From Kiritimatiellia bacterium (lineage in GTDB: Bacteria > Verrucomicrobiota > Kiritimatiellia > RFP12 > UBA1067): DNA of 64,000 bases. The stretch spans positions 23,621-87,620 of the forward strand of contig JAFXEU010000052.1 of the NCBI GenBank assembly GCA_017520845.1, written 5' to 3'. Below the pieces are notes generated by a model. That model made no database searches. It was given only the letters and a program-made list of their open reading frames with translations, and had not been told where the DNA came from. A program made the position numbers and the translations under genes. Below, one piece after another: positions 5,124-40,346 of this stretch (position 1 is its first letter; each line of letters starts with the position of its first letter).

Positions 5124-8100
5124 TCACCATGCTGTCACCGGATTGGGGCTGTAGGCTCCGAAGTCTTCTGCGGCTTCGTCAAGCTCTTTGATCGTATCGG
5201 CTCTTCCGGCGAGATAGTCCGAAAGTCTCCGTTCGGCTTCAGCCATGCGCTCCAGCTGTGCGGCATTGCGCTTCTGGATGCGCTCGAAACCGAACGGGAG
5301 GGACGTCGAATGCCAATCTGCGCGGTATTCGACGCAAAAGTCCTGCATCAATTTCCTCAAGCACGGAAGATCCTCGAAGGTTATGCGGGCAATAAGAGCC
5401 TTGTCCTTCCTCTTCCATGCGGCAAGGATGTCCGCTTCGTAATCGAGCTTGGCGCGAAGAACCTTGACGAGCGATTTTGCGGAGGCCGGAAGATTCTCGA
5501 GCTTCTCGCATTCGACAAGCGTGCGCCGGTAATCCGCCATGACCGCATTGGCGTCATCGCGCCATTCCTTCGTTTTGTACTTTGCACAGTAAAAACGCCT
5601 GTCCTTCGTTTCGCTAGGTTTGCGGACCAGATAGTTGCGGTAGTTGCCGCAGTAGATAGGATCGTCGTAAAGAATCGAGAAATCAAGAATCATGTCCGGC
5701 CACTCGTCGGCATAATGGCGCATCACATCGCCGAGTTTGACAAGGGCGCGGTAATCAAGACCCGTTATCCTTCCGAAACGCGCGCAATTTTCCGCATTTG
5801 GCTCGGGGGTCCTTCCGGAAGAAAGCTCCGCGCAGGCGAAAAGGCCTTCTTCTGCGATATCGGGCATTGATGCCGAACCATCGTCCCCCCACACTGTGAA
5901 CCACATCTCTCGACAGCCCTTCTTGAGCGCGGCCCTGACAAACGGCGCGGACGTCGCCAGAGTCTTTTCTCTGTCATGGAGGAAATGCGCCCACACCTGA
6001 ATGCCGCCCGCGAGAATGAGATTGTCCGAAAGCTTTCTGTGTCCGTCGATCATCTTCTCGTAGTATTCCTGCCTGTCGTGATAATAATCCCAGTAGCAAA
6101 GCGTGACGTTTTCCGGAAGCTTCTCGGCAAGAGACGGATCTACCGTCGCGTTTTCGTCATAATAGTCGTGAGTCGACGATGCGTTGCGGTAGATCATATC
6201 GCTCCAGATTATCGGACGAGAAAAACCATATTTCGCGCAAATTTCGTTGACGCGCCTCAAATGCTCGACAAACACTTCACTCTTGTCGCGCTTGCCGTTC
6301 TTCTTGGCATATCGCGCGCCCGCAAAACCGCCGGCTTCGTCCATGCCGAGATGTATCTGCTCGCCGCCGACCGTCTCGGCCCAGAACGCGATCATCTTTT
6401 CGATGAGGGCATAGGACTTCTCCTCGCCGACAAGAAGCGTCGAGCCGGTGTTTTTGATGTCGGCGTAATCGCTCCACCTGAGAACGGTCTCGAGATGTCC
6501 GAGCGTTTCTATGCACGGCACCATCCTTAGTCCGTACTTGTCGGCGAGCTCCTTTATCCGTTTGACGTCGGCTTTTGAATATCGCCCTTTCATATAGCCA
6601 AACTTCGCCTCGCCGTCGAGCCTGAACACGTCTTCGCAATACAGCATGACGGCGTTGTACCCCATCTCGCTCATCCTCTTGAAGCGTTTTTCGAGATAGT
6701 CGATCCTCAAGACCCTCCCTCGCGACACATCGATCATCGCACCAAGCGTCTCGAACTTCGAGTGCGACGAAGGTCTTCCGGCCGTTTCATCCGTTTTCCT
6801 CTCGGCCTTGAGGGCGTCCTTGAGATTCCAGATCGTCAGCCTTGAGAGAAATTCCCCGGCCGTCATTTTCGCGCCCGGAGCATATCTGAAGACCCTGCGG
6901 CCGCCGAAAAGCGTCACAAAATTCTCGTCAAACTCTCCGCCCTGATCTCCGGCCACATAGAGCATCGTCGCGAACGAGGGGGCCTCGGAGGAGACCGAAA
7001 CCTCGACACTTCCGTCTTCAAGGACTCTCGCACCCTCAACCTTCAGCCCCGGAGACGGAAGATCCGTCCTGGCGAGACGCGACACGGTCTCGGTCTCCTC
7101 GTTCCGGTAGGCTTTTCCTTCGGCATCGAAGCCTTCGACCGAAAGGACGAGAAACGTCCCGGAGCTTTCACGCTCAGTTTCGCCAAACGTCTTCACACCC
7201 GCCCCTTCGAACGAGAACGGATAGGTGTTCCTTGCCGTTTCGGCGCCATCTGACATCCTGCGTCTCGACACGGTAAGCCTGCCCTTGAGCGGACGCGGCA
7301 GATCCCAGACAACAGTCGCCACGGAATCGAATTCGCTGTTCGTCCTAGAATCGAGAAACGCCACGAGCGGCTTGTTGAAGCGCCTGGCGGCATACATCGC
7401 AGCCTTGAGATTCAGCGCATGGTCGATCGACGAATCGCTGTATGTCGGCCACCAGTCATTGAGCTGCCAGTTCAGCACTCCCATGCAGTACGGCATTTCG
7501 GCGTGACAACGGTTCTGCACCTTTCTCAAAAGACGGGCCTGAAGAACCTGCGTGAGATACATGAAAGACTCTTCGTCTTTCGGCTCGCCGAAATATTCTT
7601 TTATCGCCGCAAGCGCGCGCTTCTCCTCGCCCTCCTTCTTGACGTGGTTCATCATGTCGGGCGATTCCGGATCGAGCGAAGAGACGAAACGCCTCATGTA
7701 ATCGGCCTGCGGATACGAGCGCCAGCCATATTCGCTCATAAAGCGGACTTTGAGCGCAAGATACGCCTCTATCGGACGGTTGCCGCCGCCCACCCCCCAG
7801 CAATGGCTGTCGCCCTTGTCGTAATCGAAATTCTCCTCCCAGCGCCTGTCGCCGGAACAGGGAGAACTAGGCCAGAAAAACCGCCCGGGATCGGTGCGCG
7901 CGGCAGCCTCGGCTATCGTCGTCGAAAGCCTGTCGCAAAGCGCGTACCACGAGCGCGTCACATAGCTGCACCAGTACGATTCGTTGTCGCCGCACCATAT
8001 CGCGATGGACGGATGCGATTTGAGGCGCTTTATCTGGTGGACGACTTCAGCGCGAATATTGTCGCGAAACTTCCAATCGTCCACGGGATAGTAAGCGCAT

Positions 8101-9302
8101 GCGAACATCATATCCTGCCAGACGAGAAGCCCGAGCTCGTCGCAGATGTCGTAAAATCCGTCATCCTCGTAAACGCCGCCGCCCCATACGCGGATCATGT
8201 TCGCGCCCGTCTTCGCCGCTTCGCGCAGCTGAAAAGCGGCCCGGTCGGCCGTGCGCCGCGAAGGGAACGCCTCCGAAACTATCCAGTTCCAGCCCTTCGC
8301 GAAAACATCCGCTCCGTTCACCCTGAAGAAAAACGATTCGCCGCCCTTCGAGTCCTTTTCACGGACGAGCTCGACCGTTCTGAAGCCGAGATTGCGCTTG
8401 AGAGTTTCGCCCTCGCACGAAACGCTGTAACGGTACAGATTCTGTTCGCCGTAGCCGTTCGGCCACCAGAGACGCGGCTTTTCGACAACGAAAGGAGCTT
8501 CGATCGTGAACGGAGCGCACGAGCGCGGCACTTTCGCTTTTACAGTTTTCTTTTCACCCTCAAACTCGAAATCGACTCGGACCTCGTCGCCGGCCTTCGC
8601 GCACGCGACGGGCGAAACTTCGGCCGTCAGAACGACGCGGCCTTCGCCGTTTTCGATTTTCTGGGCGTGCCAGACGTAATCGAGATACGCCGTATCGGCC
8701 GATCTAAGGCGGACTTTACCGAGAATGCCGGACGTCGGGACGGAAACGCCCCAATCCCATCCGGCCTGACACTGCGTGCGCCGGAGAAAATTGATGTACC
8801 TTATCGTGTTGCGCCCGTGGCTGGAGATTTTGTCGGAACATCCCGCGGCGGCCTTGCGCTTAAGACTCGCTTTCAGGGGAGAAGGCAATCTCACCTCGAG
8901 AACGTTTTCGTCTTTGAGGATCCCCGTCACGTCAAACGACCATTTGCGGAACTGGTTGTTCGCGTAAAATCTTTCGCCGTTAAGAACGATTTCGGCAGGA
9001 TCGTCTACCGATTCGAATTCAAGTCGGACGTTTTTAGCGTCTTTCATCGCCGGCTCGAGTTTGAAGCGGCGCGTGAAAACGCTCGTGTCGTTCACATGTT
9101 TCTGCACGAGCCATTCGTTCGTCCCGAAGAAAGGATCGGGTATCAACGAGGCTTTCAAAAGCGCGGAATAATTGTCTCCCGGTATTTCCGCGGCGATTGC
9201 GGGGGCGTCGCCCATCTTGAGCTCCCACGCGCCGCCGAGATCCTGCTCCGCCGCCAACGAAGGGAGCGCAGCCAAAAAACTTATAAAAAAGAACTTTTTC
9301 AT
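5124..9302 (-). CDS. secreted GH2 beta-mannosidase-like enzyme fused to a C-terminal hexosaminidase-like (GH20-like) TIM-barrel domain, 1392 aa
   Basis: Signal peptide MKKFFFISFLAALPSLAA. The WWPNGYGEQ and VWGGGVYEDDGFYDICDELGLLVWQDMMFACA motifs match GH2 beta-mannosidases. The C-terminal region (NAVMLYCED...MVPCIETLGHLE...IHLGMDEAGG) resembles the GH20 catalytic core. The C-terminal family assignment is tentative. Confidence 0.6.
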   Translation of the reverse strand: MKKFFFISFLAALPSLAAEQDLGGAWELKMGDAPAIAAEIPGDNYSALLKASLIPDPFFGTNEWLVQKHVNDTSVFTRRFKLEPAMKDAKNVRLEFESVDDPAEIVLNGERFYANNQFRKWSFDVTGILKDENVLEVRLPSPLKASLKRKAAAGCSDKISSHGRNTIRYINFLRRTQCQAGWDWGVSVPTSGILGKVRLRSADTAYLDYVWHAQKIENGEGRVVLTAEVSPVACAKAGDEVRVDFEFEGEKKTVKAKVPRSCAPFTIEAPFVVEKPRLWWPNGYGEQNLYRYSVSCEGETLKRNLGFRTVELVREKDSKGGESFFFRVNGADVFAKGWNWIVSEAFPSRRTADRAAFQLREAAKTGANMIRVWGGGVYEDDGFYDICDELGLLVWQDMMFACAYYPVDDWKFRDNIRAEVVHQIKRLKSHPSIAIWCGDNESYWCSYVTRSWYALCDRLSTTIAEAAARTDPGRFFWPSSPCSGDRRWEENFDYDKGDSHCWGVGGGNRPIEAYLALKVRFMSEYGWRSYPQADYMRRFVSSLDPESPDMMNHVKKEGEEKRALAAIKEYFGEPKDEESFMYLTQVLQARLLRKVQNRCHAEMPYCMGVLNWQLNDWWPTYSDSSIDHALNLKAAMYAARRFNKPLVAFLDSRTNSEFDSVATVVWDLPRPLKGRLTVSRRRMSDGAETARNTYPFSFEGAGVKTFGETERESSGTFLVLSVEGFDAEGKAYRNEETETVSRLARTDLPSPGLKVEGARVLEDGSVEVSVSSEAPSFATMLYVAGDQGGEFDENFVTLFGGRRVFRYAPGAKMTAGEFLSRLTIWNLKDALKAERKTDETAGRPSSHSKFETLGAMIDVSRGRVLRIDYLEKRFKRMSEMGYNAVMLYCEDVFRLDGEAKFGYMKGRYSKADVKRIKELADKYGLRMVPCIETLGHLETVLRWSDYADIKNTGSTLLVGEEKSYALIEKMIAFWAETVGGEQIHLGMDEAGGFAGARYAKKNGKRDKSEVFVEHLRRVNEICAKYGFSRPIIWSDMIYRNASSTHDYYDENATVDPSLAEKLPENVTLCYWDYYHDRQEYYEKMIDGHRKLSDNLILAGGIQVWAHFLHDREKTLATSAPFVRAALKKGCREMWFTVWGDDGSASMPDIAEEGLFACAELSSGRTPEPNAENCARFGRITGLDYRALVKLGDVMRHYADEWPDMILDFSILYDDPIYCGNYRNYLVRKPSETKDRRFYCAKYKTKEWRDDANAVMADYRRTLVECEKLENLPASAKSLVKVLRAKLDYEADILAAWKRKDKALIARITFEDLPCLRKLMQDFCVEYRADWHSTSLPFGFERIQKRNAAQLERMAEAERRLSDYLAGRADTIKELDEAAEDFGAYSPNPVTAW

Positions 9303-25469: not shown

Positions 25470-26492
25470 TCACTTCTTTTTTGCCGACACCGGCACGGGC
25501 GTCGTTTTAACCTTCTCGATAATTTCCTCAAGAATCTCGGGATTGCTTTTCAGAAACTCGATAGCCGCGAGCGTCCCCTGGGCGAGCTGTTCCGTACCGT
25601 AGCTGAGCCAGCTTCCGCGCTTTTCGACGATGCCTCGGACCAAAGCCGCGTCGAGCACCGAACCTTCACGCGAAATCCCGCATGCGTAAAGAATATCAAA
25701 CTCGGCTTCCGTAAAGGGAGCCGCGACCTTATTCTTGACGACCTTTACGCGCGTACGGTTTCCCACGACCTCTCCCTGAGGATTTTTTATCGCACCTATC
25801 CGCTGGACCTGCAGGCGGCACGTCGCGTAGAATTTAAGAGCCTTGCCCCCGGGTGTAGTCTCGGGATTGCCGAACATGACGCCGATCTTCTCGCGCACCT
25901 GATTCGTGAATATGCACAACGTCTTCGTCTGTGAAATCGCCGCCGTAAGTTTACGCATCGCCTGCGACATGAGCCGCGCCTGAAGACCGACGTGACTGTC
26001 GCCCATATTGCCGTCGATTTCCGCCTGCGGCGTCAGCGCGGCGACGGAGTCAACTACGACGACGTCAAGCGCCCCCGATTTTATAAGTTCTTCGCAGATG
26101 CAAAGAGCCTCTTCGCCGCTAGACGGCTGAGAGACGATCAGGTTCTCGAGGTCCACTCCTATCTTACGGGCGTAAGACGGATCCAGCGCGTGCTCGGCGT
26201 CGATGAACGCCGCCGTACCGCCCGCTTTCTGCGCATTGGCGACAACATGCAATGCGAGCGTCGTTTTACCCGACGACTCGTGTCCGTACAGCTCGATGAT
26301 ACGCCCTTTGGGAAGCCCTCCGATTCCAAGCGCCATATCAAGCGACAACGCTCCCGTCGAAACCGCTTCAATATCACCTCGCGACTCCTCTCCGAGCTTC
26401 ATGATCGACATCTCCCCAAACTCCTTGCGTATCGCCTTCATAACCTCATCAAGCGCCGAACCGATTCTGTTTATCATTCCGTCTTTGGCCAT
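25470..26492 (-). CDS. recA: recombinase RecA
   Basis: [12 protein letters not shown], Walker [13 protein letters not shown] and [18 protein letters not shown] motifs. The likely start is [11 protein letters not shown] at 26492. The track start at 26534 adds 14 aa. Confidence 0.9.
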
Positions 26493-26524: not shown

Positions 26525-26977
26525 TCAATCGCACCAGTTTACAAATTTCCCGCGCCCGACAAAAATATCGACGCGCTCAATATGATCTATCTCAGGAGAT
26601 TCCTTCGACTCCGGAGTGCCGAAAACCTCGATAACGTCGAACCTGTACGCCCCCGCCCATTTATGCACCATAAGCCACGAACGGCACACGCGTCTCATAA
26701 GCATCCGCTTGCGGCGGTCGATGCTCCTTAAGCGGCTTTCGAACTCGCTGTGTTCGGCGTGCTGTTTCACCTCAACGAAGACTATCGCGTCGGCCTCGCG
26801 CGAATACGCGACTATATCGATTTCAAGGCGCTTGTCCGCTTTACATGGACGGACGTTGCGCTCGACGATTATATAGCCGCGTCTCCTTAAAAAATCCGCC
26901 GCGACGTCTTCGCCCCAACGCCCGTGTTCGACACCGACGTTGGGGATTTCTGGCTTTTTCCTACGCCGCAGGAACAT
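26525..26977 (-). CDS. YraN-family (UPF0102) endonuclease-like protein
   Basis: [22 protein letters not shown]...LEIDIVA...IVFVEVK matches the YraN/UPF0102 signature. Length is 150 aa. Confidence 0.5.
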
Positions 26978-27554
26978 TACCCATCTCCTTTACGCGACGC
27001 TTATACGCGGACGTATCCCGCGCGATCACCTCGGGAATGCCGAAACAGATAACCCCTAACGAATCCTCGATCGCCATGGCGAGCCCGTACGCCTCGCTCG
27101 AGGAAAGTATGATATGCGCACTTTTCGATTCCGGCGACCCGGGTTTACTGCGCGAAACCTCAAACGCATACGCGCCGTCATATTCCACAAGATGCCGAAG
27201 AGAAATTTTTGTCGATCCCGCCGGAGAGACGTGAAAGAGCCCCTTGCCGTCCTCGATCGATTCTTTAATTCCCCTAAAGACTTCAAGCATCTTGGTGAGA
27301 TCGTTAAAATCAAGTTTTACGCAGATGCTGTTGTCCCAGTCGAACGTAGCGAATTTGGGAGGCACGACGTGTCTGTCGCCGACGGTAAGCTGGTTGGCGA
27401 AAGTCGCCATTATCGAGCCGTCGACGTCGTCATGCGCGGGATGCACCTCGAGTTGCAAAGCGCCGCCCGTACATTTCGGATTCGCTCTATAAAACGTCAG
27501 CCTAGGCCGATAATGCCTAACTGAATTCTGCCTGTTATTTTCGTTAGCATTCAT
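26961..27554 (-). CDS. hypothetical protein (197 aa), no recognised family
   Basis: The ORF has a strong GAGGTG RBS 6 nt upstream of the ATG at 27554. Lies between comM and yraN-recA. Has coding-like composition. Confidence 0.4.
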   Translation of the reverse strand: MNANENNRQNSVRHYRPRLTFYRANPKCTGGALQLEVHPAHDDVDGSIMATFANQLTVGDRHVVPPKFATFDWDNSICVKLDFNDLTKMLEVFRGIKESIEDGKGLFHVSPAGSTKISLRHLVEYDGAYAFEVSRSKPGSPESKSAHIILSSSEAYGLAMAIEDSLGVICFGIPEVIARDTSAYKRRVKEMGNVPAA

Positions 27555-27592: not shown

Positions 27593-29143
27593 TCATGCCC
27601 AGAAAGCGTCTCCGTTTTCCGAATCAAGCTGTCTGTAGGAGGCCGCCTCCAGAACGGCCTCGCGCCCGACGGATTCTTCACCCGCGAGATCTGCGATGGT
27701 TCTTGCAACTCTCAATATTCTGTCGTACGCACGTGCCGACAAACTGAGAGATTCTATCGCCCGCCTGATTTCCCCGGTCGCTTCGGCCGTCAGTTTGCAT
27801 ATCTCTTTCAAATCGCGGCTCTTGGCGTCGGCGTTTGAAACAACGCCGTGCATTCCGCGATAACGGGCCGTCTGTATTTCACGCGCCCTTAAGACTCTCT
27901 CTCTAATGGCGCTGCTTGATTCGCCCTCCGATAGAGAATCAAGATCCTTTACCGGGACTGCGCTTACTCCGACCTGGATATCGATGCGGTCCAACAGAGG
28001 CCCTGATACACGACGCTGATATTTAAGAATCTGCGACTGGCTGCAACGGCACTCGTGCGTCGGATCGTTGTAGTAGCCGCACGGGCATGGATTCATCGCT
28101 GCAACAAGCATAAATCTACTCGGATAATCGCACGCCGCGAGGGCACGCGAGACAGCGACATGGCCGTCCTCAAGAGGCTGACGCAAAACTTCGAGCGCCT
28201 GACGCGGAAACTCCGGGAATTCGTCGAGAAAAAGAACGCCGCGATGAGCTAAGGAAACCTCGCCCGGAAGAGGATGAGCGCCCCCGCCCAAAAGTCCGAT
28301 GGAACTTACGGTATGATGGGGAGCGCGGAACGGACGCGAAGTGATAAAACGCCCTCCGCCTTTTTCACGCCCGGCTACAGAATGAATGCGCGAAACCTCA
28401 AGAGCCTCTTCAACCGACATCGGCGGCAGAATAGACGGTATGCGGCGAGCGAGCATCGTCTTTCCTGACCCCGGCGATCCGATCATCAGAACGTTATGAG
28501 AACCGGCGACGGCAACCTCGAGCGCACGCTTGACGAACGCCTGTCCTTTTACGTCCGCAAAGTCATCTCCGACTTCCCTGTTGAGTTCGACGAGATCCCC
28601 GAGATTCGTGAAGACGGGTTCTATCATAAGATTGCCGTTCAAAAATTCAGCCGCATCTCGAAGGGTCGCTACAGGGATAATGTCTATCCCGGAGACGATG
28701 CTCGCCTCTTCAGCGTTTTCTTCAGGCACGAGAACTGCACTCTTGCCTATCCGCCTCATTTCGAGAACCATCGGCAAAATCCCGCGCACGCGGCGCACCT
28801 TACCGGAAAGCGAAAGCTCGCCCACGAGAGCGTAGTCGCCTAAATCAATCGCCTTCAGGCGACCCGTCGCGGATAAAAGACCGACCGCTATCGGAAGATC
28901 GTATATGGGGCCTTCCTTTCGGACGTCGGCGGGCGCGAGATTGACAGTTACCGAAAACTCGTCCTTCGACTTGTAACCAGAATTCTTAAGCGCGGTCGAT
29001 ACGCGGTCCTTCGCCTCCTTGACGGCGGTATCCGGCAGGCCGACGATCGTAAACGAATTCGTCCCCTTTACGGAATAAACTTCGATTTCTACGGTAGACG
29101 CGTCGACCCCCGTAACGGCCGCGCTGTAACATCTGGCTAACAT
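27593..29143 (-). CDS. comM: YifB/ComM family Mg-chelatase-like AAA+ ATPase
   Basis: N-terminal Lon-like domain (MLARCYSAAVTGVDASTVEIEV), Walker A GSPGSGKT, and the C-terminal MCM-like/ChlI region. Length is 516 aa. Confidence 0.8.
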   Translation of the reverse strand: MLARCYSAAVTGVDASTVEIEVYSVKGTNSFTIVGLPDTAVKEAKDRVSTALKNSGYKSKDEFSVTVNLAPADVRKEGPIYDLPIAVGLLSATGRLKAIDLGDYALVGELSLSGKVRRVRGILPMVLEMRRIGKSAVLVPEENAEEASIVSGIDIIPVATLRDAAEFLNGNLMIEPVFTNLGDLVELNREVGDDFADVKGQAFVKRALEVAVAGSHNVLMIGSPGSGKTMLARRIPSILPPMSVEEALEVSRIHSVAGREKGGGRFITSRPFRAPHHTVSSIGLLGGGAHPLPGEVSLAHRGVLFLDEFPEFPRQALEVLRQPLEDGHVAVSRALAACDYPSRFMLVAAMNPCPCGYYNDPTHECRCSQSQILKYQRRVSGPLLDRIDIQVGVSAVPVKDLDSLSEGESSSAIRERVLRAREIQTARYRGMHGVVSNADAKSRDLKEICKLTAEATGEIRRAIESLSLSARAYDRILRVARTIADLAGEESVGREAVLEAASYRQLDSENGDAFWA

Positions 29144-29208
29144 GCGATCTCCTTTCGCCGACTTGTCCTGTCGACGGAAGGATTATCGCATTTTCAAAAA
29201 AAAGAAGT

Positions 29209-29268
29209 GTTACATTTCCGTTACATTTTCGTTACATTTTTGTAACGTTGATGTAACACAAATGTAAC
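29209..29268. promoter_or_regulatory. phased operator-like array: 3x GTTACATTT (starts 29209, 29220, 29231) followed by 3x TGTAAC (29241, 29252, 29263), all at 11-bp spacing, forming a 60-bp higher-order palindrome 66-125 bp upstream of comM
   Basis: Seen directly. The inner pair forms GTTACA-TTTT-TGTAAC. Confidence 0.45.
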
Positions 29269-29281
29269 GTTTCTCCCCGCG

Positions 29282-31129
29282 TCAGAAATCGCTCGAATCG
29301 CAGACGAGGGATTCCATGATGTAGTCTTTGCGCTCGGGCGTATTGGATCCCATATAGAACTTTATCGTTTTTTCGACGTCGTGATCGTCGGCGCACGTAA
29401 CGGGAGTCAGGCGCATATTCTCGCCGATGAAGTCCTTGAACTCCTTGGCGTTCAGTTCGCCAAGACCCTTGAAGCGCGTTATCTCGCACCCGCGGCCGCA
29501 CTTCCTGATCGCGACCTCGCGCTCCTCGTCGGAAAAGCAGTAATGTTGCTCCTTCTTGTTGCGGACGCGGAAAAGCGGCGTCTCGAGAATGTAGACGCGG
29601 CCGTCCGTTATGAGGGGACGGTAGAAGCGCATGAAGAACGTCGTGAGGAGCATCCGGATATGAAGCCCGTCGACATCGGCATCGGTCGCGAAAATGATCT
29701 TCGAATATCTCAGATGATCGAGCGAGTCCTCGATGTCGAGCGTTTTGATGAGATTGAAAAACTCCTCGTTCTTGTAAAGAACGTCCTTGTTGAGCCCGCA
29801 CGTGTTGAGCGGCTTACCCTTAAGGAAGAATACGGCCTGGTTCATCGCGTCGCGCGCAAGTCCGAGCGTACCGCCGGCGGACTGACCCTCGGTCAAGAAA
29901 ATCATCGTATCGTCGCCTTCCGGACGACCGGTCTTCTTATTGATCTTATCGAGCTTAAGATGATTCTTGCAATCCTTGAGTTGCGGAACGCGGACCGAAA
30001 CCGCCTGGGTACGTTCGCGCGCCTGCTTCTTGATGGTGTTGAGCTGAGAGCGGATCTTGCCGGTCTCCTCGATCTTGGCGATGAGCTTGTCGGTTTCGGA
30101 CGGCGAACGGTGGAGCGCGGCGAGGATTTCCTTGCGCATCTCGGCGACGAGATCGGAGCGGATATCGTTCATCACGAACTTGATCTTCGTCTGGCCTTCA
30201 AAAACGGGATTCATGATTCTGAGCGACACCGCTCCGATAAGGCCGTCGCGGATATCGTCTCCGTCGAATTTCTTTTTCGCCCCGTAATCGTTGAGCGCCT
30301 TCGTGAGCGCCTCCTTGAACGCCGTAAGATGGGTGCCGCCGTCGGTCGTATACTGACCGTTGACGAAAGAATGATACTCTTCGCCGAAACGGTTGGTATG
30401 GGTGAAGATTATTTCGAGATTCTTCGTCTTGATGTGAAAAGGCGCATAGAGTTTTTCGAACTGGGCCTCGTCGGCGACAAGATCGGCAAGCCCCCCTTCG
30501 GAGCAGATCGACTGACCGTTGAGATTGATCGTAAGACCGGCGTTGACGTAGCAGTACATCCGCATGCGTCTTACGACATGCTCTTCGCGCACCTTGAAAT
30601 TCTTCAGGACCTTCACGTCCGGCCTGTAGCGGATGAACGTTCCGTTCGGCTCACGCGTTTTGCACTGGCCGCGTTTCTTCGATTTTAGACGACCCTCTTC
30701 GAAAAAACCTTCGGAATACTCTCCCTCGCGGAAGGCGCGGACTTCAAAAAATTCGGAAAGCGCGTTCACGGCCTTCGTTCCGACGCCGTTCATTCCGGCC
30801 GAAAACTGAAAGTTATCGGAGTCGAACTTGCCGCCGGTATTCATCTGACTTACGCAGTCGACGACCTTCTCCAGAGGAATTCCGCGCCCGTAGTCTCTGA
30901 CGCTCGTCTCGCCCGTGTCGTAATTGACGTTGACGTCAATCTTTTTACCGTAGTTCATGACAAACTCGTCGACGGAGTTGTCGATGACCTCCTTCATCAG
31001 AATGTATATGCAATCGTGGTACATCGCGCCCGTACCGGGCTCGCCGACGTACATGCCGGGGCGCATTCTGATGTGCGTCACCGGATCAAGGGTCTTGATG
31101 CTGTCTGCGCCGTAACTGTTCTTTGCCAT
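29282..31129 (-). CDS. gyrB: type IIA topoisomerase ATPase subunit B (GyrB/ParE family, short 615-aa form)
   Basis: GHKL ATPase N-terminus (YDCIYILMKEVIDNSVDE, GRGIP), TOPRIM (EGQSAGG) and the C-terminal GyrB/ParE tail. No A subunit is adjacent, so the gyrB versus parE choice is open. Confidence 0.75.
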   Translation of the reverse strand: MAKNSYGADSIKTLDPVTHIRMRPGMYVGEPGTGAMYHDCIYILMKEVIDNSVDEFVMNYGKKIDVNVNYDTGETSVRDYGRGIPLEKVVDCVSQMNTGGKFDSDNFQFSAGMNGVGTKAVNALSEFFEVRAFREGEYSEGFFEEGRLKSKKRGQCKTREPNGTFIRYRPDVKVLKNFKVREEHVVRRMRMYCYVNAGLTINLNGQSICSEGGLADLVADEAQFEKLYAPFHIKTKNLEIIFTHTNRFGEEYHSFVNGQYTTDGGTHLTAFKEALTKALNDYGAKKKFDGDDIRDGLIGAVSLRIMNPVFEGQTKIKFVMNDIRSDLVAEMRKEILAALHRSPSETDKLIAKIEETGKIRSQLNTIKKQARERTQAVSVRVPQLKDCKNHLKLDKINKKTGRPEGDDTMIFLTEGQSAGGTLGLARDAMNQAVFFLKGKPLNTCGLNKDVLYKNEEFFNLIKTLDIEDSLDHLRYSKIIFATDADVDGLHIRMLLTTFFMRFYRPLITDGRVYILETPLFRVRNKKEQHYCFSDEEREVAIRKCGRGCEITRFKGLGELNAKEFKDFIGENMRLTPVTCADDHDVEKTIKFYMGSNTPERKDYIMESLVCDSSDF

Positions 31130-37505: not shown

Positions 37506-40346
37506 TTAAAGAAATTTCGCCGTAAACGATCTCGGCGACGATTTTACTTTTTCAAGCGGTCCTTCCACGACGACCTCTCCTCCGCCCGATCCGCCGCCGG
37601 GTCCCATGTCGACAATCCAGTCTGCCGATCGGATAACATCGATATTGTGCTCGATGACAATTATCGTATTTCCCTGGTCGCGCAGCTTGAGGAGAAGGTT
37701 CATCAGTTTGGCAACGTCATCAAAGTGAAGGCCCGTCGTAGGCTCGTCGAGAAGATAGAGCGTCCTGCCTGTCGAGCGCTTCGAAAGTTCTGTCGCGAGC
37801 TTTATGCGCTGCGCCTCACCCCCCGAAAGCGTCGTCGCCGACTGCCCGAGAGCGATGTACCCTAAGCCCACATCAACAAGCGTTTTAAGTTTCCTCGCAA
37901 GCGACGGAACCTTCGCGAAAAATTCGTACGCCTCCGCGACCGTCATCTCCAACACTTCGGCGATTGACTTTCCGCCATAGGTGACTTCAAGCGTCTCCGC
38001 ATTGAAGCGCTTACCTCCGCACTGTTCGCACGTCACGTACACATCCGGCAGAAAACTCATCTCAAGCTTTCGTAATCCGTCGCCGCCGCAGACTTCACAG
38101 CGCCCGCCTTTAACGTTGAACGAGAAGCGTCCCGCCGTGTATCCGCGCGCGCGCGCAGCCTCGGTCTTCGCGAAGAGTTCGCGTATCTCCGAGAAAAATC
38201 CGACATACGTCGCGGGATTGGAGCGCGGCGTACGGCCGATCGGGGACTGATCAATCTCAATCACCTTGTCAAAATTTTCGTCGCCCGTAAGCTTTTTATA
38301 TTTCCCAGGTCTCGCTTTTGAATTGTAGAATTTTTTCATCAGCGCCCGCTTGAGGGTTTCCTCAACGAGTGTTGACTTGCCCGAGCCGGAAACTCCAGAC
38401 ACCACCGTAAATGCACCAATGGGAAAATGCGCCGTCACGTTCTTCAGATTGTGCTCCGAGCAGTCCGAGATAGAGAGGAAGGAGTTAGTGGTTAGGGGAT
38501 AGGGGATAGGGGTCAGGGAAGCATTTCTTTTAACTCCTTTACCGACTCCTGACCTCTGACTCCTGACTCCTGACTCCTGAGAGGAGACTTTCTTCTCTCC
38601 CGTCAGATACTGCGCCGTGAGAGAGCCGCATTTCAAAAGCCCGTCAAAATCGCCTTGATACATGACGCGCCCGCCCTCGCGCCCTGCGCCGGGGCCGAGA
38701 TCGACTATCCAATCGGCGGCACGCATCATCTCCTCGTCGTGCTCAACGATGACCACCGTATTGCCGCGGTCGCGAAGCCCCTTCAACGTCGCGATAAGCC
38801 GCTCGTTGTCGCGTGGATGAAGCCCGATTGTCGGCTCGTCGAGAACATAAAGAACTCCCGTCAATCCGGAGCCGATCTGGGTCGCCAGCCGTATGCGCTG
38901 CATTTCTCCGCCCGAAAGCGTCGACGACGCGCGATCGAGAGTAAGGTAATCAAGCCCGACATCGATAAGAAACTTAAGACGCCGGCGTATCTCCTTCATA
39001 ACTTCACCGAGTCCCGCGAAACGCGTATCGCCCTTCTCGTCGATCGACTCGAAAAACTTAAGGGCGTCGGTGATGCTCATCGCCATCACCTCGACGATCG
39101 TTCTGCCCGCGACGCGCGCGGCCCGCGATTCCGGCCTGAGCCTCGCGCCGTTACATTCGGGGCAGACCTTGTAACTCTGGTACGATTCGTACTTCGAGCG
39201 CGTCTCGTCGTCTTCCGCCTCTTCAAGACGCTTTTGAAGAACGGCCAAAACACCTTCGAAGGGTCTATCGACGCTCCGCCACGGGAGGATAAGATCGTCC
39301 TTGAAGCCGTGCATCAGGTTTTTGCGGAATCCCGCCGGCAACTTTTCATAAGGCGTTGAAAGATCGACCTTGTACTGCCTGGAGATCTGCTCCAAAAGCG
39401 CATTGTAGTACATTATCGCGTTATGGCCCGCGCGGCGCCACGGATGGATGCACTCTCTTAACGGAAGCGTCTTGTCGGGAACAACGAGATCCTCGTCGAA
39501 AAAATACAGCTGGCCCAATCCCGAACATACAGGGCATGCGCCAAACGGCGAGTTGAACGAAAAGCTGCGGGGCTTGAGCTCGTCGAATGAAATGCCGCAA
39601 TCGACACAGGCGTTCAGTTCGGAATAAACGACGCTCTTGCCGGTTTCGACATATTCCACGCTCAATATCCCGCCGCCCGATTTAAGCGCCAGTTCCACGG
39701 AATCCGTAAGGCGCGTTCTGTCGCAGGGCAGAACGACGCGGTCGACGACAATATCGATGTTGTGGGATTTTTTCTTATCGAGCTCAGGAACCTCTTCGAT
39801 CATGTAAACGGATCCGTTGACCCGCACGCGCGCGAAGCCTTTGCGCTTCAACTCCTCGAATATATTTTCGTGACGGCCCTTTTTCCCCTTGACGGCAGGG
39901 GCGTAGATTACGGCCTTACCTGTCGTTTTCAAAACGGAATCCACAATCTCCTCGGCGCTTTGACGCTGAACGGGCCTGCCGCATTCGGGGCAGTGGGCGA
40001 TCGCGGCTGAACCGTATAGGATACGAAGATAGTCGTGTATCTCGGTAACGGTCGCCACGATAGAGCGCGGATTACCGCTCGTCGTTCTCTGTTCAATCGA
40101 AATCGCGGGACTTAATCCTTCGATCTTCTCGACGTCCGGTTTCGCGAGCCGGTCGAGAAACTGCCGCGCATAAGCCGAAAGCGACTCGACGTATCTGCGC
40201 TGGCCCTCCGCATAAAGCGTATCAAACGCGAGCGACGACTTACCGCTCCCGGAAAGTCCCGTCACGACGGTTAGTGAATTGCGCGGAATCGTTACGTCGA
40301 TCCCCTTAAGGTTGTGCATCCGCGCATTTGTTATCTCAATATCCAT
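37506..40346 (-). CDS. uvrA: excinuclease ABC subunit A, carrying an in-frame ~90-bp repeat-element insertion in the inter-half linker
   Basis: Two ABC ATPase halves with zinc-finger insertions. The start is [15 protein letters not shown] (cf. E. coli MDKIEVRGARTHNLKN). The linker GEKKV-[[39 protein letters not shown]][11 protein letters not shown] is encoded by the heptamer element at 38491-38582. Confidence 0.9.
38491..38582. repeat. heptamer-repeat element inside uvrA: (GGGGWTA)x5 G-quadruplex motif GGGGATAGGGGATAGGGGTCAGGG + 25-nt spacer + (CTGACYC)x5
   Basis: Seen directly. It is in frame with uvrA. A second copy with the same architecture and orientation lies in coaE (51199-51280). Confidence 0.7.

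Follow-up and report, generated by a model that had tools for sequence, protein, structure and literature searches.

A phased six-slot repeat array upstream of comM in Kiritimatiellae is the predicted operator of an orphan OmpR/PhoB-family regulator

Introduction

Response regulators of the OmpR family normally bind direct repeats in a head-to-tail arrangement. In the Pho boxes, and in the repeats bound by PhoP of Mycobacterium tuberculosis, a 7-bp core and a 4-bp A/T spacer together give an 11-bp period that is read by an OmpR-family winged helix. The OmpR sites at ompF and ompC span roughly −100 to −40 of the promoter. WalR is a cell-wall regulator of the Firmicutes that has a large regulon and a conserved motif.

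The sites of several members of this family have been described in detail. OmpR recognizes three tandem 20-bp sites, each composed of two half-sites, and occupies them cooperatively on one face of the DNA at an activator-dependent promoter (PMC3050692). Sites for WalR (VicR) follow the consensus TGTWAH-N5-TGTWAH (PMC4168254). CiaR, which affects competence, binds NTTAAG-N5-TTTAAG, and both its recognition helix and its motif are essentially invariant across the streptococci (PMC3091779). The orphan regulator HP1043 of Helicobacter pylori recognizes ttTAAG-N5-tTTAAg and has been modelled as binding head to head, a mode of which OmpR and HP1043 are the only documented or modelled cases (PMC8345958).

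Here, a helically phased array of six half-sites upstream of comM is compared with these systems. The array is located in a 64-kb stretch of DNA, the whole of which was analysed and is referred to below as the window.

Results

A phased array between gyrB/parE and comM

The initial annotation of the window had described three GTTACA and three TGTAAC half-sites, phased at 11 bp around a central palindrome, in the 138-bp gap between a gyrB/parE-type gene and comM. The position in the gap was confirmed, and all the coordinates, the phasing and the palindrome were reproduced by motif and repeat searches (Table 1). On the plus strand the array reads GTTACATTTCC GTTACATTTTC GTTACATTTT TGTAACGTTGA TGTAACACAAA TGTAAC, with GTTACA starting at 29209, 29220 and 29231, each copy being followed by TTT, and TGTAAC starting at 29241, 29252 and 29263. 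Successive half-sites are therefore spaced by 11, 11, 10, 11 and 11 bp, the 10-bp step being the centre of the palindrome, GTTACA-TTTT-TGTAAC. The gyrB/parE-type gene and comM are both encoded on the minus strand, and so the order along the direction of transcription is GTTACA ×3, TGTAAC ×3, promoter, comM. In full, the coding strand carries GTTACA ×3, AAAA, TGTAAC ×3, ACTTCTTTTTTTTGAAAA, TGC GATAAT, a 38-nt leader with AAGGAG, and the ATG.

The array is real and far beyond chance. Of 21 GTTACA sites in the 64-kb window, six fall inside these 60 bp. The triple pattern GTTACA-N5-GTTACA-N5-GTTACA, with up to three mismatches allowed, gave five overlapping matches in the window, all of them within the array, while shuffled controls gave a mean of 0.02 matches and none of 100 shuffles reached five. 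A repeat finder applied to the array returned a direct repeat of 11 nt in three copies, and inverted arms of 34 nt with 79% complementarity. Further arrays of the TGTAAC/GTTACA type were absent from the 64-kb window, including the region upstream of uvrA. A pair inside uvrA, at 39150 and 39170, looks like chance.

The sequence between the half-sites also has a recognizable character. On the coding strand the 5′ side of the TGTAAC cores is occupied by the A/T-rich spacers caaaaa, gaaaa or ggaaa, and the spacers of the distal arm, read on the opposite strand, are acaaa and gttga. A-rich spacers are likewise found in most of the arrays of relatives, those of lineage L130 being less A-rich.

Table 1. 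Positions in the window of the array, the predicted promoter and leader, and the neighbouring genes.
Feature	Positions	Strand	Basis or remark
Whole array, with a half-site in each of six helically phased slots; predicted OmpR/PhoB-family operator	29209..29268	−	Repeat analysis; slots homologous in 28 lineages
Promoter-proximal arm, coding strand TGTAAC-N5-TGTAAC-N5-TGTAAC	29209..29236	−	Most lineage-constant part of the array
Cores of the proximal arm (slots −49, −38 and −27 from the −10 hexamer)	29231..29236, 29220..29225, 29209..29214	−	
Central AAAA junction of the GTTACA-AAAA-TGTAAC palindrome; 10-bp core spacing	29237..29240	−	
Distal arm, coding strand GTTACA-N5-GTTACA-N5-GTTACA (slots −81, −70 and −59)	29241..29268	−	
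Pyrimidine/T-rich tract TTCTTTTTTTT (coding strand), separating the last half-site from the −10; at the −35 position	29196..29206	−	
Predicted extended −10, TGC GATAAT (TGCGATAAT)	29182..29190	−	Cross-lineage conservation
Leader, with ribosome-binding site AAGGAG (29149..29154)	29144..29181	−	
comM, YifB/Mg-chelatase-like AAA+ helicase, 516 aa, gene 1	27593..29143	−	Pfam Mg_chelatase, ChlI, Mg_chelatase_C
197-aa Whirly-fold protein, predicted ssDNA binder, gene 2	26961..27554	−	AlphaFold2 and Foldseek
yraN (UPF0102, PD-(D/E)xK nuclease), gene 3	26525..26977	−	Pfam UPF0102, NCBIfam YraN
recA, 340 aa as called on identical contigs, last gene	25470..26492	−	Pfam RecA, E = 8e-130
gyrB/parE-type topoisomerase subunit, upstream neighbour, outside the unit	29282..31129	−	

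comM is the first gene of a recombination operon

The array precedes an operon, a point absent from the initial annotation, in which comM is followed by a gene for a 197-aa Whirly-like protein, yraN and recA, all tightly packed or overlapping. According to a recent description, ComM and YraN form a helicase/nuclease pair that extends and resolves the D-loop made by RecA in natural transformation (bioRxiv 10.1101/2024.02.06.579203), and these roles identify the operon as a recombination and transformation module. A uvrA gene lies 8 kb from the array locus.

The sequence of the 197-aa protein gave no match in Pfam, NCBIfam or the PDB. Its AlphaFold2 model (pLDDT 86.5) was matched by Foldseek to the plant proteins WHY1, WHY2 and PBF-2 with E = 1e-6 and TM-scores, taken under either normalization, of 0.59–0.79; the same search also returned the trypanosome MRP1/2 proteins and PUR-alpha. 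The family comprises only 76 clusters among 5.8 billion proteins, and those clusters that name a source are all labelled Kiritimatiellae. On the strength of the modelled fold, the protein is a candidate ssDNA partner of ComM, YraN and RecA.

The homologues of ComM, which carry the YifB family name in Kiritimatiellae, place the organism in that group. Six contigs from ruminant gut metagenomes carry this intergenic region without a single difference. The operon is conserved in Kiritimatiellae, with recA missing from it in lineages L187, L188 and L190. The gene upstream of comM varies with the lineage and may be parE, trmE, a metallophosphoesterase gene, a divergent gene or a regulator gene. A DUF2851 gene is found 3′ of the operon in many relatives (L129, L130, L187, L188 and L190), followed in L130 by a gene for a RecQ-like helicase, and may be part of the same functional module.

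The comM promoter and its leader

A two-hexamer sigma-70 scan gave no −35/−10 pair at the comM promoter, and the −10 element was for this reason assigned from cross-lineage conservation. It forms the most conserved intergenic block of 28 lineages, with 1.4–2.0 bits at the TG and at A2, A4 and T6 of the hexamer, and the last core of the array ends 21 nt before it in the window and 20–21 nt before it across lineages. In most lineages a CTTTTC-like motif occupies the position of the T-rich tract. This motif could be a −35 equivalent that is unusual for the phylum, or a U-tract.

A second feature concerns the leader. Every lineage has bases directly 3′ of the −10 (overlapping the −10 in the window) that are complementary to the region of the ribosome-binding site and ATG. 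The arms in the window are at 29185–29194 and 29139–29148, and pairs of this kind include GTTTCCGT/ACGGAAAC, GTCCGC/GCGGAC and GGTTGC/GCAACC. The duplex energy of the arms averaged −9.45 kcal/mol when the arms came from the same lineage and −5.0 kcal/mol when they were mismatched between lineages; none of 2000 permutations gave a mean as low as that of the matched arms. RNAalifold predicted no structure on a MAFFT alignment of the leaders, whereas this alignment-free permutation test did show matched arms. If transcription starts about 7 nt after the −10, then only read-through transcripts would carry the 5′ arm, and in these the leader could fold back and block translation. Otherwise, the transcription start or the −10 assignment for comM needs revision. 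Pairing so close to the −10 fits poorly with the assumed transcription start, which counts against the operator interpretation developed below.

Fixed slots and changing cores among relatives

Relatives were sampled as the comM loci of homologues with 65–97% identity, together with 55 metagenome loci encoding the 197-aa protein. An 11-bp phased array was present upstream of comM in every lineage sampled. For 28 non-redundant lineages the slots were aligned, using the −10 block TTTGC GATAAT GT.CCGTC as anchor. In essentially all of these lineages, and whatever the core, the direct cores begin at −27, −38 and −49 and the inverted ones at −59, −70 and −81. In this alignment, strong conservation of the −10 block contrasts with variation of the cores: relatives carry TGATAC, TGTAAG, CGTAAG, CTTAAGG, TTCAAGG, TGACCC, GGACAC, TGTGCGC, TATCAG, TATCAC, TGTTGCG and others, and the CTTAAG array consists of six direct copies. 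What stays constant is the set of three direct units nearest the promoter, as a rule with one inverted unit that completes the central palindrome; beyond these, relatives have between zero and four further inverted units. Moderate conservation among the lineages is also seen in the A-run from −56 to −50. That the slots are kept as the core sequence changes rules out chance and general drift, and points to a reader whose specificity changes.

The initial annotation had made its interpretation depend on conservation upstream of comM and on other occurrences of the motif. Conservation in relatives extends to the six-slot architecture, which is found in 28 lineages, but not to the sequence. As for other occurrences, there were none in the window, and a search for a second array of each lineage's own half-site within 10–20 kb of each relative was negative. 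This is no argument against function; on sequence grounds, it fits a local regulator that would have a single target, and freedom from other targets would ease rapid changes of specificity.

Some arrays have a hybrid appearance. That of L145 consists of TGTTGCG ×3, a gap and one TGTAAC in slot −27, which is both the core and the slot of the window, and that of L134 (around 817–900) has two to three copies of GTATCA, two of GTTACG and a TGATAC. These may be snapshots of specificity turnover.

A response regulator gene is linked to comM

In eight lineages (L130, L140, L152, L164, L187, L188, L189 and L190) the gene directly upstream of comM encodes an OmpR/PhoB-family regulator of 226–228 aa with Response_reg and Trans_reg_C domains. 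The end of the regulator gene is 100–140 bp from comM and the array lies in the gap. The regulators of L187–L190 were retrieved by regulator similarity alone and then found to be adjacent to comM (four of the seven orthologues looked up). In a ninth lineage, L143, the regulator gene is 1.9 kb upstream of comM, with inserted genes between.

Two of these neighbourhoods contain additional genes. The L143 insertion (6555–8200), between the regulator gene and the array and comM, holds two ORFs of 213 and 371 aa. Inspected by eye, the N-terminal region of the 213-aa product resembles a GIY-YIG nuclease, and the two ORFs may form a restriction-modification cassette. In L189 (1809–4527) comM is cut off at 378 aa and is followed by a phage-type integrase gene and a DUF5906 gene. 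From the gene order, this looks like a mobile element inserted in comM, with the regulator gene and array still upstream.

The comM-linked regulator is an orphan. No histidine kinase gene is adjacent to its gene, and its own upstream region has no array. Residues D9, D52, T80 and K102 are invariant, such that the regulator looks like a canonical phospho-acceptor. The closest solved structure is that of M. tuberculosis PhoP (E = 1e-34), and a hypervariable segment of the regulator aligns with the PhoP recognition helix. The protein scores below every NCBIfam equivalog cutoff, those of PhoB and PhoP included; for YycF it reaches 131 bits against a cutoff of 340. The mean column entropy is 0.94 over the receiver domain, which is conserved, and 1.76 over the recognition helix, which is among the most variable segments.

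Most lineages, that of the window included, have no regulator gene beside comM. A search of the 64-kb window by tblastn, and by Pfam on mid-sized ORFs, identified no response regulator, and there is no other regulator gene near the array in the window. Orthologues that are unlinked to comM do exist (L191, L192 and L193); the orthologues P0232 and P0234, and also P0235, lie away from comM with no array downstream, and so contribute no regulator–array pairs. The existence of unlinked orthologues makes an unlinked regulator gene plausible in the organism of the window, where the regulator is presumably encoded elsewhere in the genome.

Recognition helix and half-site vary together

Comparison of recognition helices with cores gave the following pairs: NAVRC(I/L)(A/V)KRLK with TGACCC, (T/S)RIR... 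with GGACAC, ..(I/L)YVHVS(H/N)L with CTTAAGG, GSIYSHVSRI with TTCAAGG, GAVQTHVSRL with CGTAAG, and GAIQTYVSRI with TGTAAG. A partial Mantel test of site against helix, controlled for receiver-domain distance, gave r = 0.50 and p = 0.003 for n = 9 pairs, which are the only ones available and are phylogenetically related. The association is visible in individual comparisons. Lineages L140, L187, L190 and L188 have receivers that are 12–26% different and four different cores, matching the changes in their helices. Conversely, the receivers of L140 and L143 are 50% different, yet the CTTAAGG core and the YVHVS helix are common to both. The match is not complete, in that L130 and L189 both have GGACAC though 6 of the 13 helix positions compared (46%) differ between them.

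In L140, L187, L190 and L188 the spacers (ttcgc, aaat) are kept and the same core substitution is made in each unit of the array. Such a pattern, with the same substitution in every core and the spacers retained, is what selection on each unit by an altered reader should leave behind. Together with the adjacent regulator gene in eight lineages and with the slots conserved in 28, this joint change of helix and half-site supports the earlier proposal of a lineage-specific transcription factor binding on one face of the DNA upstream of comM.

Half-sites differ even between close relatives. Lineages L145 and L146 have ComM proteins that are 96% identical and arrays of TGTTGCG and TATCAG, respectively, and the window and L127 (ComM 90% identical) have TGTAAC and TGATAC cores. 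Moreover, CGTAAG, CTTAAGG and TGTAAG each recur in lineages with only 65–71% ComM identity. These observations are indicative either of fast, converging turnover of specificity or of an exchange of regulator–operator modules between lineages.

Alternative explanations for the array

The array could be bound by some other, unlinked protein, such as an SOS-type repressor of recA, a competence factor or the Whirly-like protein, in which case the neighbouring regulator gene would be a coincidence; we consider this unlikely. An SOS repressor is suggested by recA in the operon, by uvrA nearby and by the central 16-bp palindrome, which matches a LexA-type box in size. However, LexA-type boxes are conserved within a lineage, and the sequence of the array changes even between genomes with 96% identical ComM and has no second copy within 10–20 kb of any relative or anywhere in the window, the region before uvrA included. 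On this divergence, and on the lack of further copies in the loci searched, a LexA-type SOS box was rejected; the initial annotation had not recognized the half-site as a LexA box. The Whirly-like protein has in its favour that PBF-2 is called a plant transcriptional regulator in the title of PDB entry 1l3a, but the 197-aa protein is 54–87% conserved, is without a hypervariable segment and has the fold of an ssDNA binder, and it was rejected as the specificity determinant. An unlinked reader in general would account for the many lineages, that of the window among them, with no regulator gene beside comM. Against this, the response regulator is the only protein known to vary with the cores, and regulator orthologues retrieved by sequence alone repeatedly land beside comM.

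A different possibility is that the palindromic array acts as RNA, forming a hairpin that serves the upstream gene, which is parE in the window and elsewhere the regulator gene, as an intrinsic terminator or insulator, with the T-rich tract as its U-tract. The array of the window folds at −32.7 kcal/mol (z = −7.7) and is followed by CUUCUUUUUUUU; folds are stronger in L189 (−53.5 kcal/mol), L130 (−47.5) and L173 (−42.9), and a T-rich tract follows the array in most lineages. The leader pairing described above, which would be able to silence read-through transcripts, also suggests insulation from upstream transcription. Folding potential is not conserved, however: the array of L176 reaches only −1.6 kcal/mol and those of L127, L152, L179 and L145 have z-scores weaker than −1.5. 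The stem is AT-rich with internal loops, and a terminator scan made no call. In addition, a hairpin has no need of direct repeats, three of which make up the constant part of the array; the 20–21 nt to the downstream −10 are fixed in all lineages, for which a terminator offers no reason; and the array is also present in L129, where the upstream gene is divergent. A hairpin as the explanation of the array is thus improbable, and termination is at most a secondary role. An Rfam search of the array region gave only sub-threshold, microRNA-like matches that arise from the palindrome.

Triples of GTTACA-N5 also occur elsewhere. A scan of all species genomes for three such units gave, among the matches listed, more than 120 loci in many phyla, comprising 11-bp tandem repeats, arrays upstream of Bacteroidetes integrases and intergenic sites in Clostridia; no regulon for the motif was revealed among them. 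The N-termini of the ORFs downstream of some triples are, judged by eye, presumably those of Bacteroidetes-type integrases (...IYLD...), which would suggest that triples before such ORFs are arm-type sites. Triples are also found within a multi-copy element of Prolixibacteraceae MAGs, at least three copies of which are present in isolate SMAG_U4731. Loci L041, L059, L096 and L097, and L019, L042, L046, L081, L090 and L116, represent the integrase-upstream triples and the Prolixibacteraceae element, which are unrelated to the comM array.

Some points recall an iteron or replication origin, or else a mobile element that has its arm-type sites or its end at the array: iterons and integrase arm sites are phased direct repeats, comM is a known insertion hotspot that is interrupted by an integrase gene in L189, and the triples described above stand directly upstream of Bacteroidetes integrase genes. 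Such an identity of the array is nevertheless most improbable. The window has no GC-skew inflection, dnaA or rep gene, integrase or transposase, its comM is intact, and the six metagenome contigs are identical across the region. Moreover, in many lineages, whatever their neighbouring genes, the array keeps its place at the promoter of this conserved chromosomal operon. Cumulative GC skew declines through most of the window, and near the array it is flat without reversing; with no skew turn, no replication gene and a fixed distance from the promoter, the iteron-like origin element also suggested by the initial annotation is abandoned.

Discussion

Overall, the comparative sequence data make it probable that the array serves a dedicated orphan regulator of the OmpR/PhoB family as its operator, and that this regulator would control the promoter of the comM, Whirly-like, yraN and recA genes. 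The half-sites are 6–7 bp long with a centre spacing of 10–11 bp, and an A/T-rich spacer adjoins each core. The array is not made of direct repeats only, however, as the three distal units are inverted. Such an inverted arm is atypical of the OmpR family with its normal head-to-tail binding, and protomers at the central inverted pair would have to meet head to head. Also weighing against this reading are the absence of a response regulator from the 64-kb window, the lack of an array before the regulator gene, the small number of related regulator–array pairs and the strong hairpin, followed by a T-run, that the array of the window can form.

In the proposed mechanism, each 11-bp unit, consisting of an A-rich spacer of 4–5 nt and a core of 6–7 bp, would be bound by one winged-helix domain, with the recognition helix reading the core in the major groove and the wing contacting the A/T spacer. 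Six protomers, or three dimers, would then be aligned on one face of the DNA between about −98 and −34 of the predicted start. The extended −10 without a recognizable −35, the place of which is taken by the T-rich tract, indicates that the regulator is most likely an activator, and in its phosphorylated form it would most likely act by recruiting RNA polymerase in the manner of OmpR at ompF and ompC. Binding to the array, its stoichiometry and a positive direction of regulation are all predictions of this model.

If correct, this would be the first regulator to be proposed in the PVC superphylum for the ComM/YraN/RecA recombination module, and uncultured gut Kiritimatiellae would switch on transformation-type recombination through a phosphorylation signal. 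The relatives also provide a natural series in which scaffold, slots and promoter are constant and about a dozen half-sites are paired with matching recognition helices. This series could reveal the base-reading code of winged-helix response regulators, examples being Y196Q with a T-to-G change at core position 2 and H198Y with a C-to-T change at position 1. More generally, the locus is an unusually clear case of joint evolution of regulator and operator, in which a multi-copy operator changes in concert over short distances, a behaviour that is not obviously explained by existing accounts of binding-site turnover. More tentatively, the regulator and its six-slot operator may constitute a rapidly diversifying lock-and-key pair. 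The pairs of the different lineages would then form a natural, mutually orthogonal set of the OmpR type that is shaped by diversifying selection or by frequent exchange. A possible driver might lie in mobile elements, which also target comM, or in incoming foreign alleles, either of which would otherwise take over the control of transformation and recombination.

Among the described systems, OmpR at ompF (F1-F2-F3) and ompC (C1-C2-C3) of E. coli and Yersinia places six protomers upstream of the promoter, as is proposed for the array, and the predicted extent of the array is similar. In contrast to the 10-bp half-sites of OmpR, the array has a period of 11 bp and three of its six units are inverted; its cores are six exact copies, whereas the OmpR sites are degenerate. 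Moreover, the regulator here is an orphan with apparently one target and a specificity that differs between close relatives.

The 11-bp period is that of the PhoB and PhoP repeats, and M. tuberculosis PhoP is also the closest solved relative of the linked regulator. The Pho boxes, however, lie about 10 bp from the −10 and replace the −35, whereas here a helical turn with the T-rich tract separates the array from the −10. The linked regulator is, in addition, below the equivalog cutoffs and has no phosphate regulon context here.

With WalR/VicR (YycF) the likeness is one of sequence: the proximal arm fits the TGTWAH-N5 consensus exactly, and in the same orientation to the promoter. The host belongs to Kiritimatiellae, however, and the linked regulator falls far short of the YycF score given above, which is indicative of a resemblance between half-sites and not of orthology. 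A WalR/VicR regulon site, the pattern of which is present, was rejected on these two grounds.

CiaR and HP1043 are both OmpR-family proteins with hexamer repeats one helical turn apart, and relatives of the array use the similar cores CTTAAG and CTTAAGG. In contrast to the invariant helix of CiaR, that of the linked regulator is among the least conserved parts of the protein. Finally, the head-to-head model of HP1043 is a precedent for the central inverted pair of the array. HP1043 is phosphorylation-independent, whereas the linked regulator keeps all its phospho-acceptor residues. Unusual features of the array are its inverted arm and its hypervariable half-site, which appears to co-evolve with the regulator.
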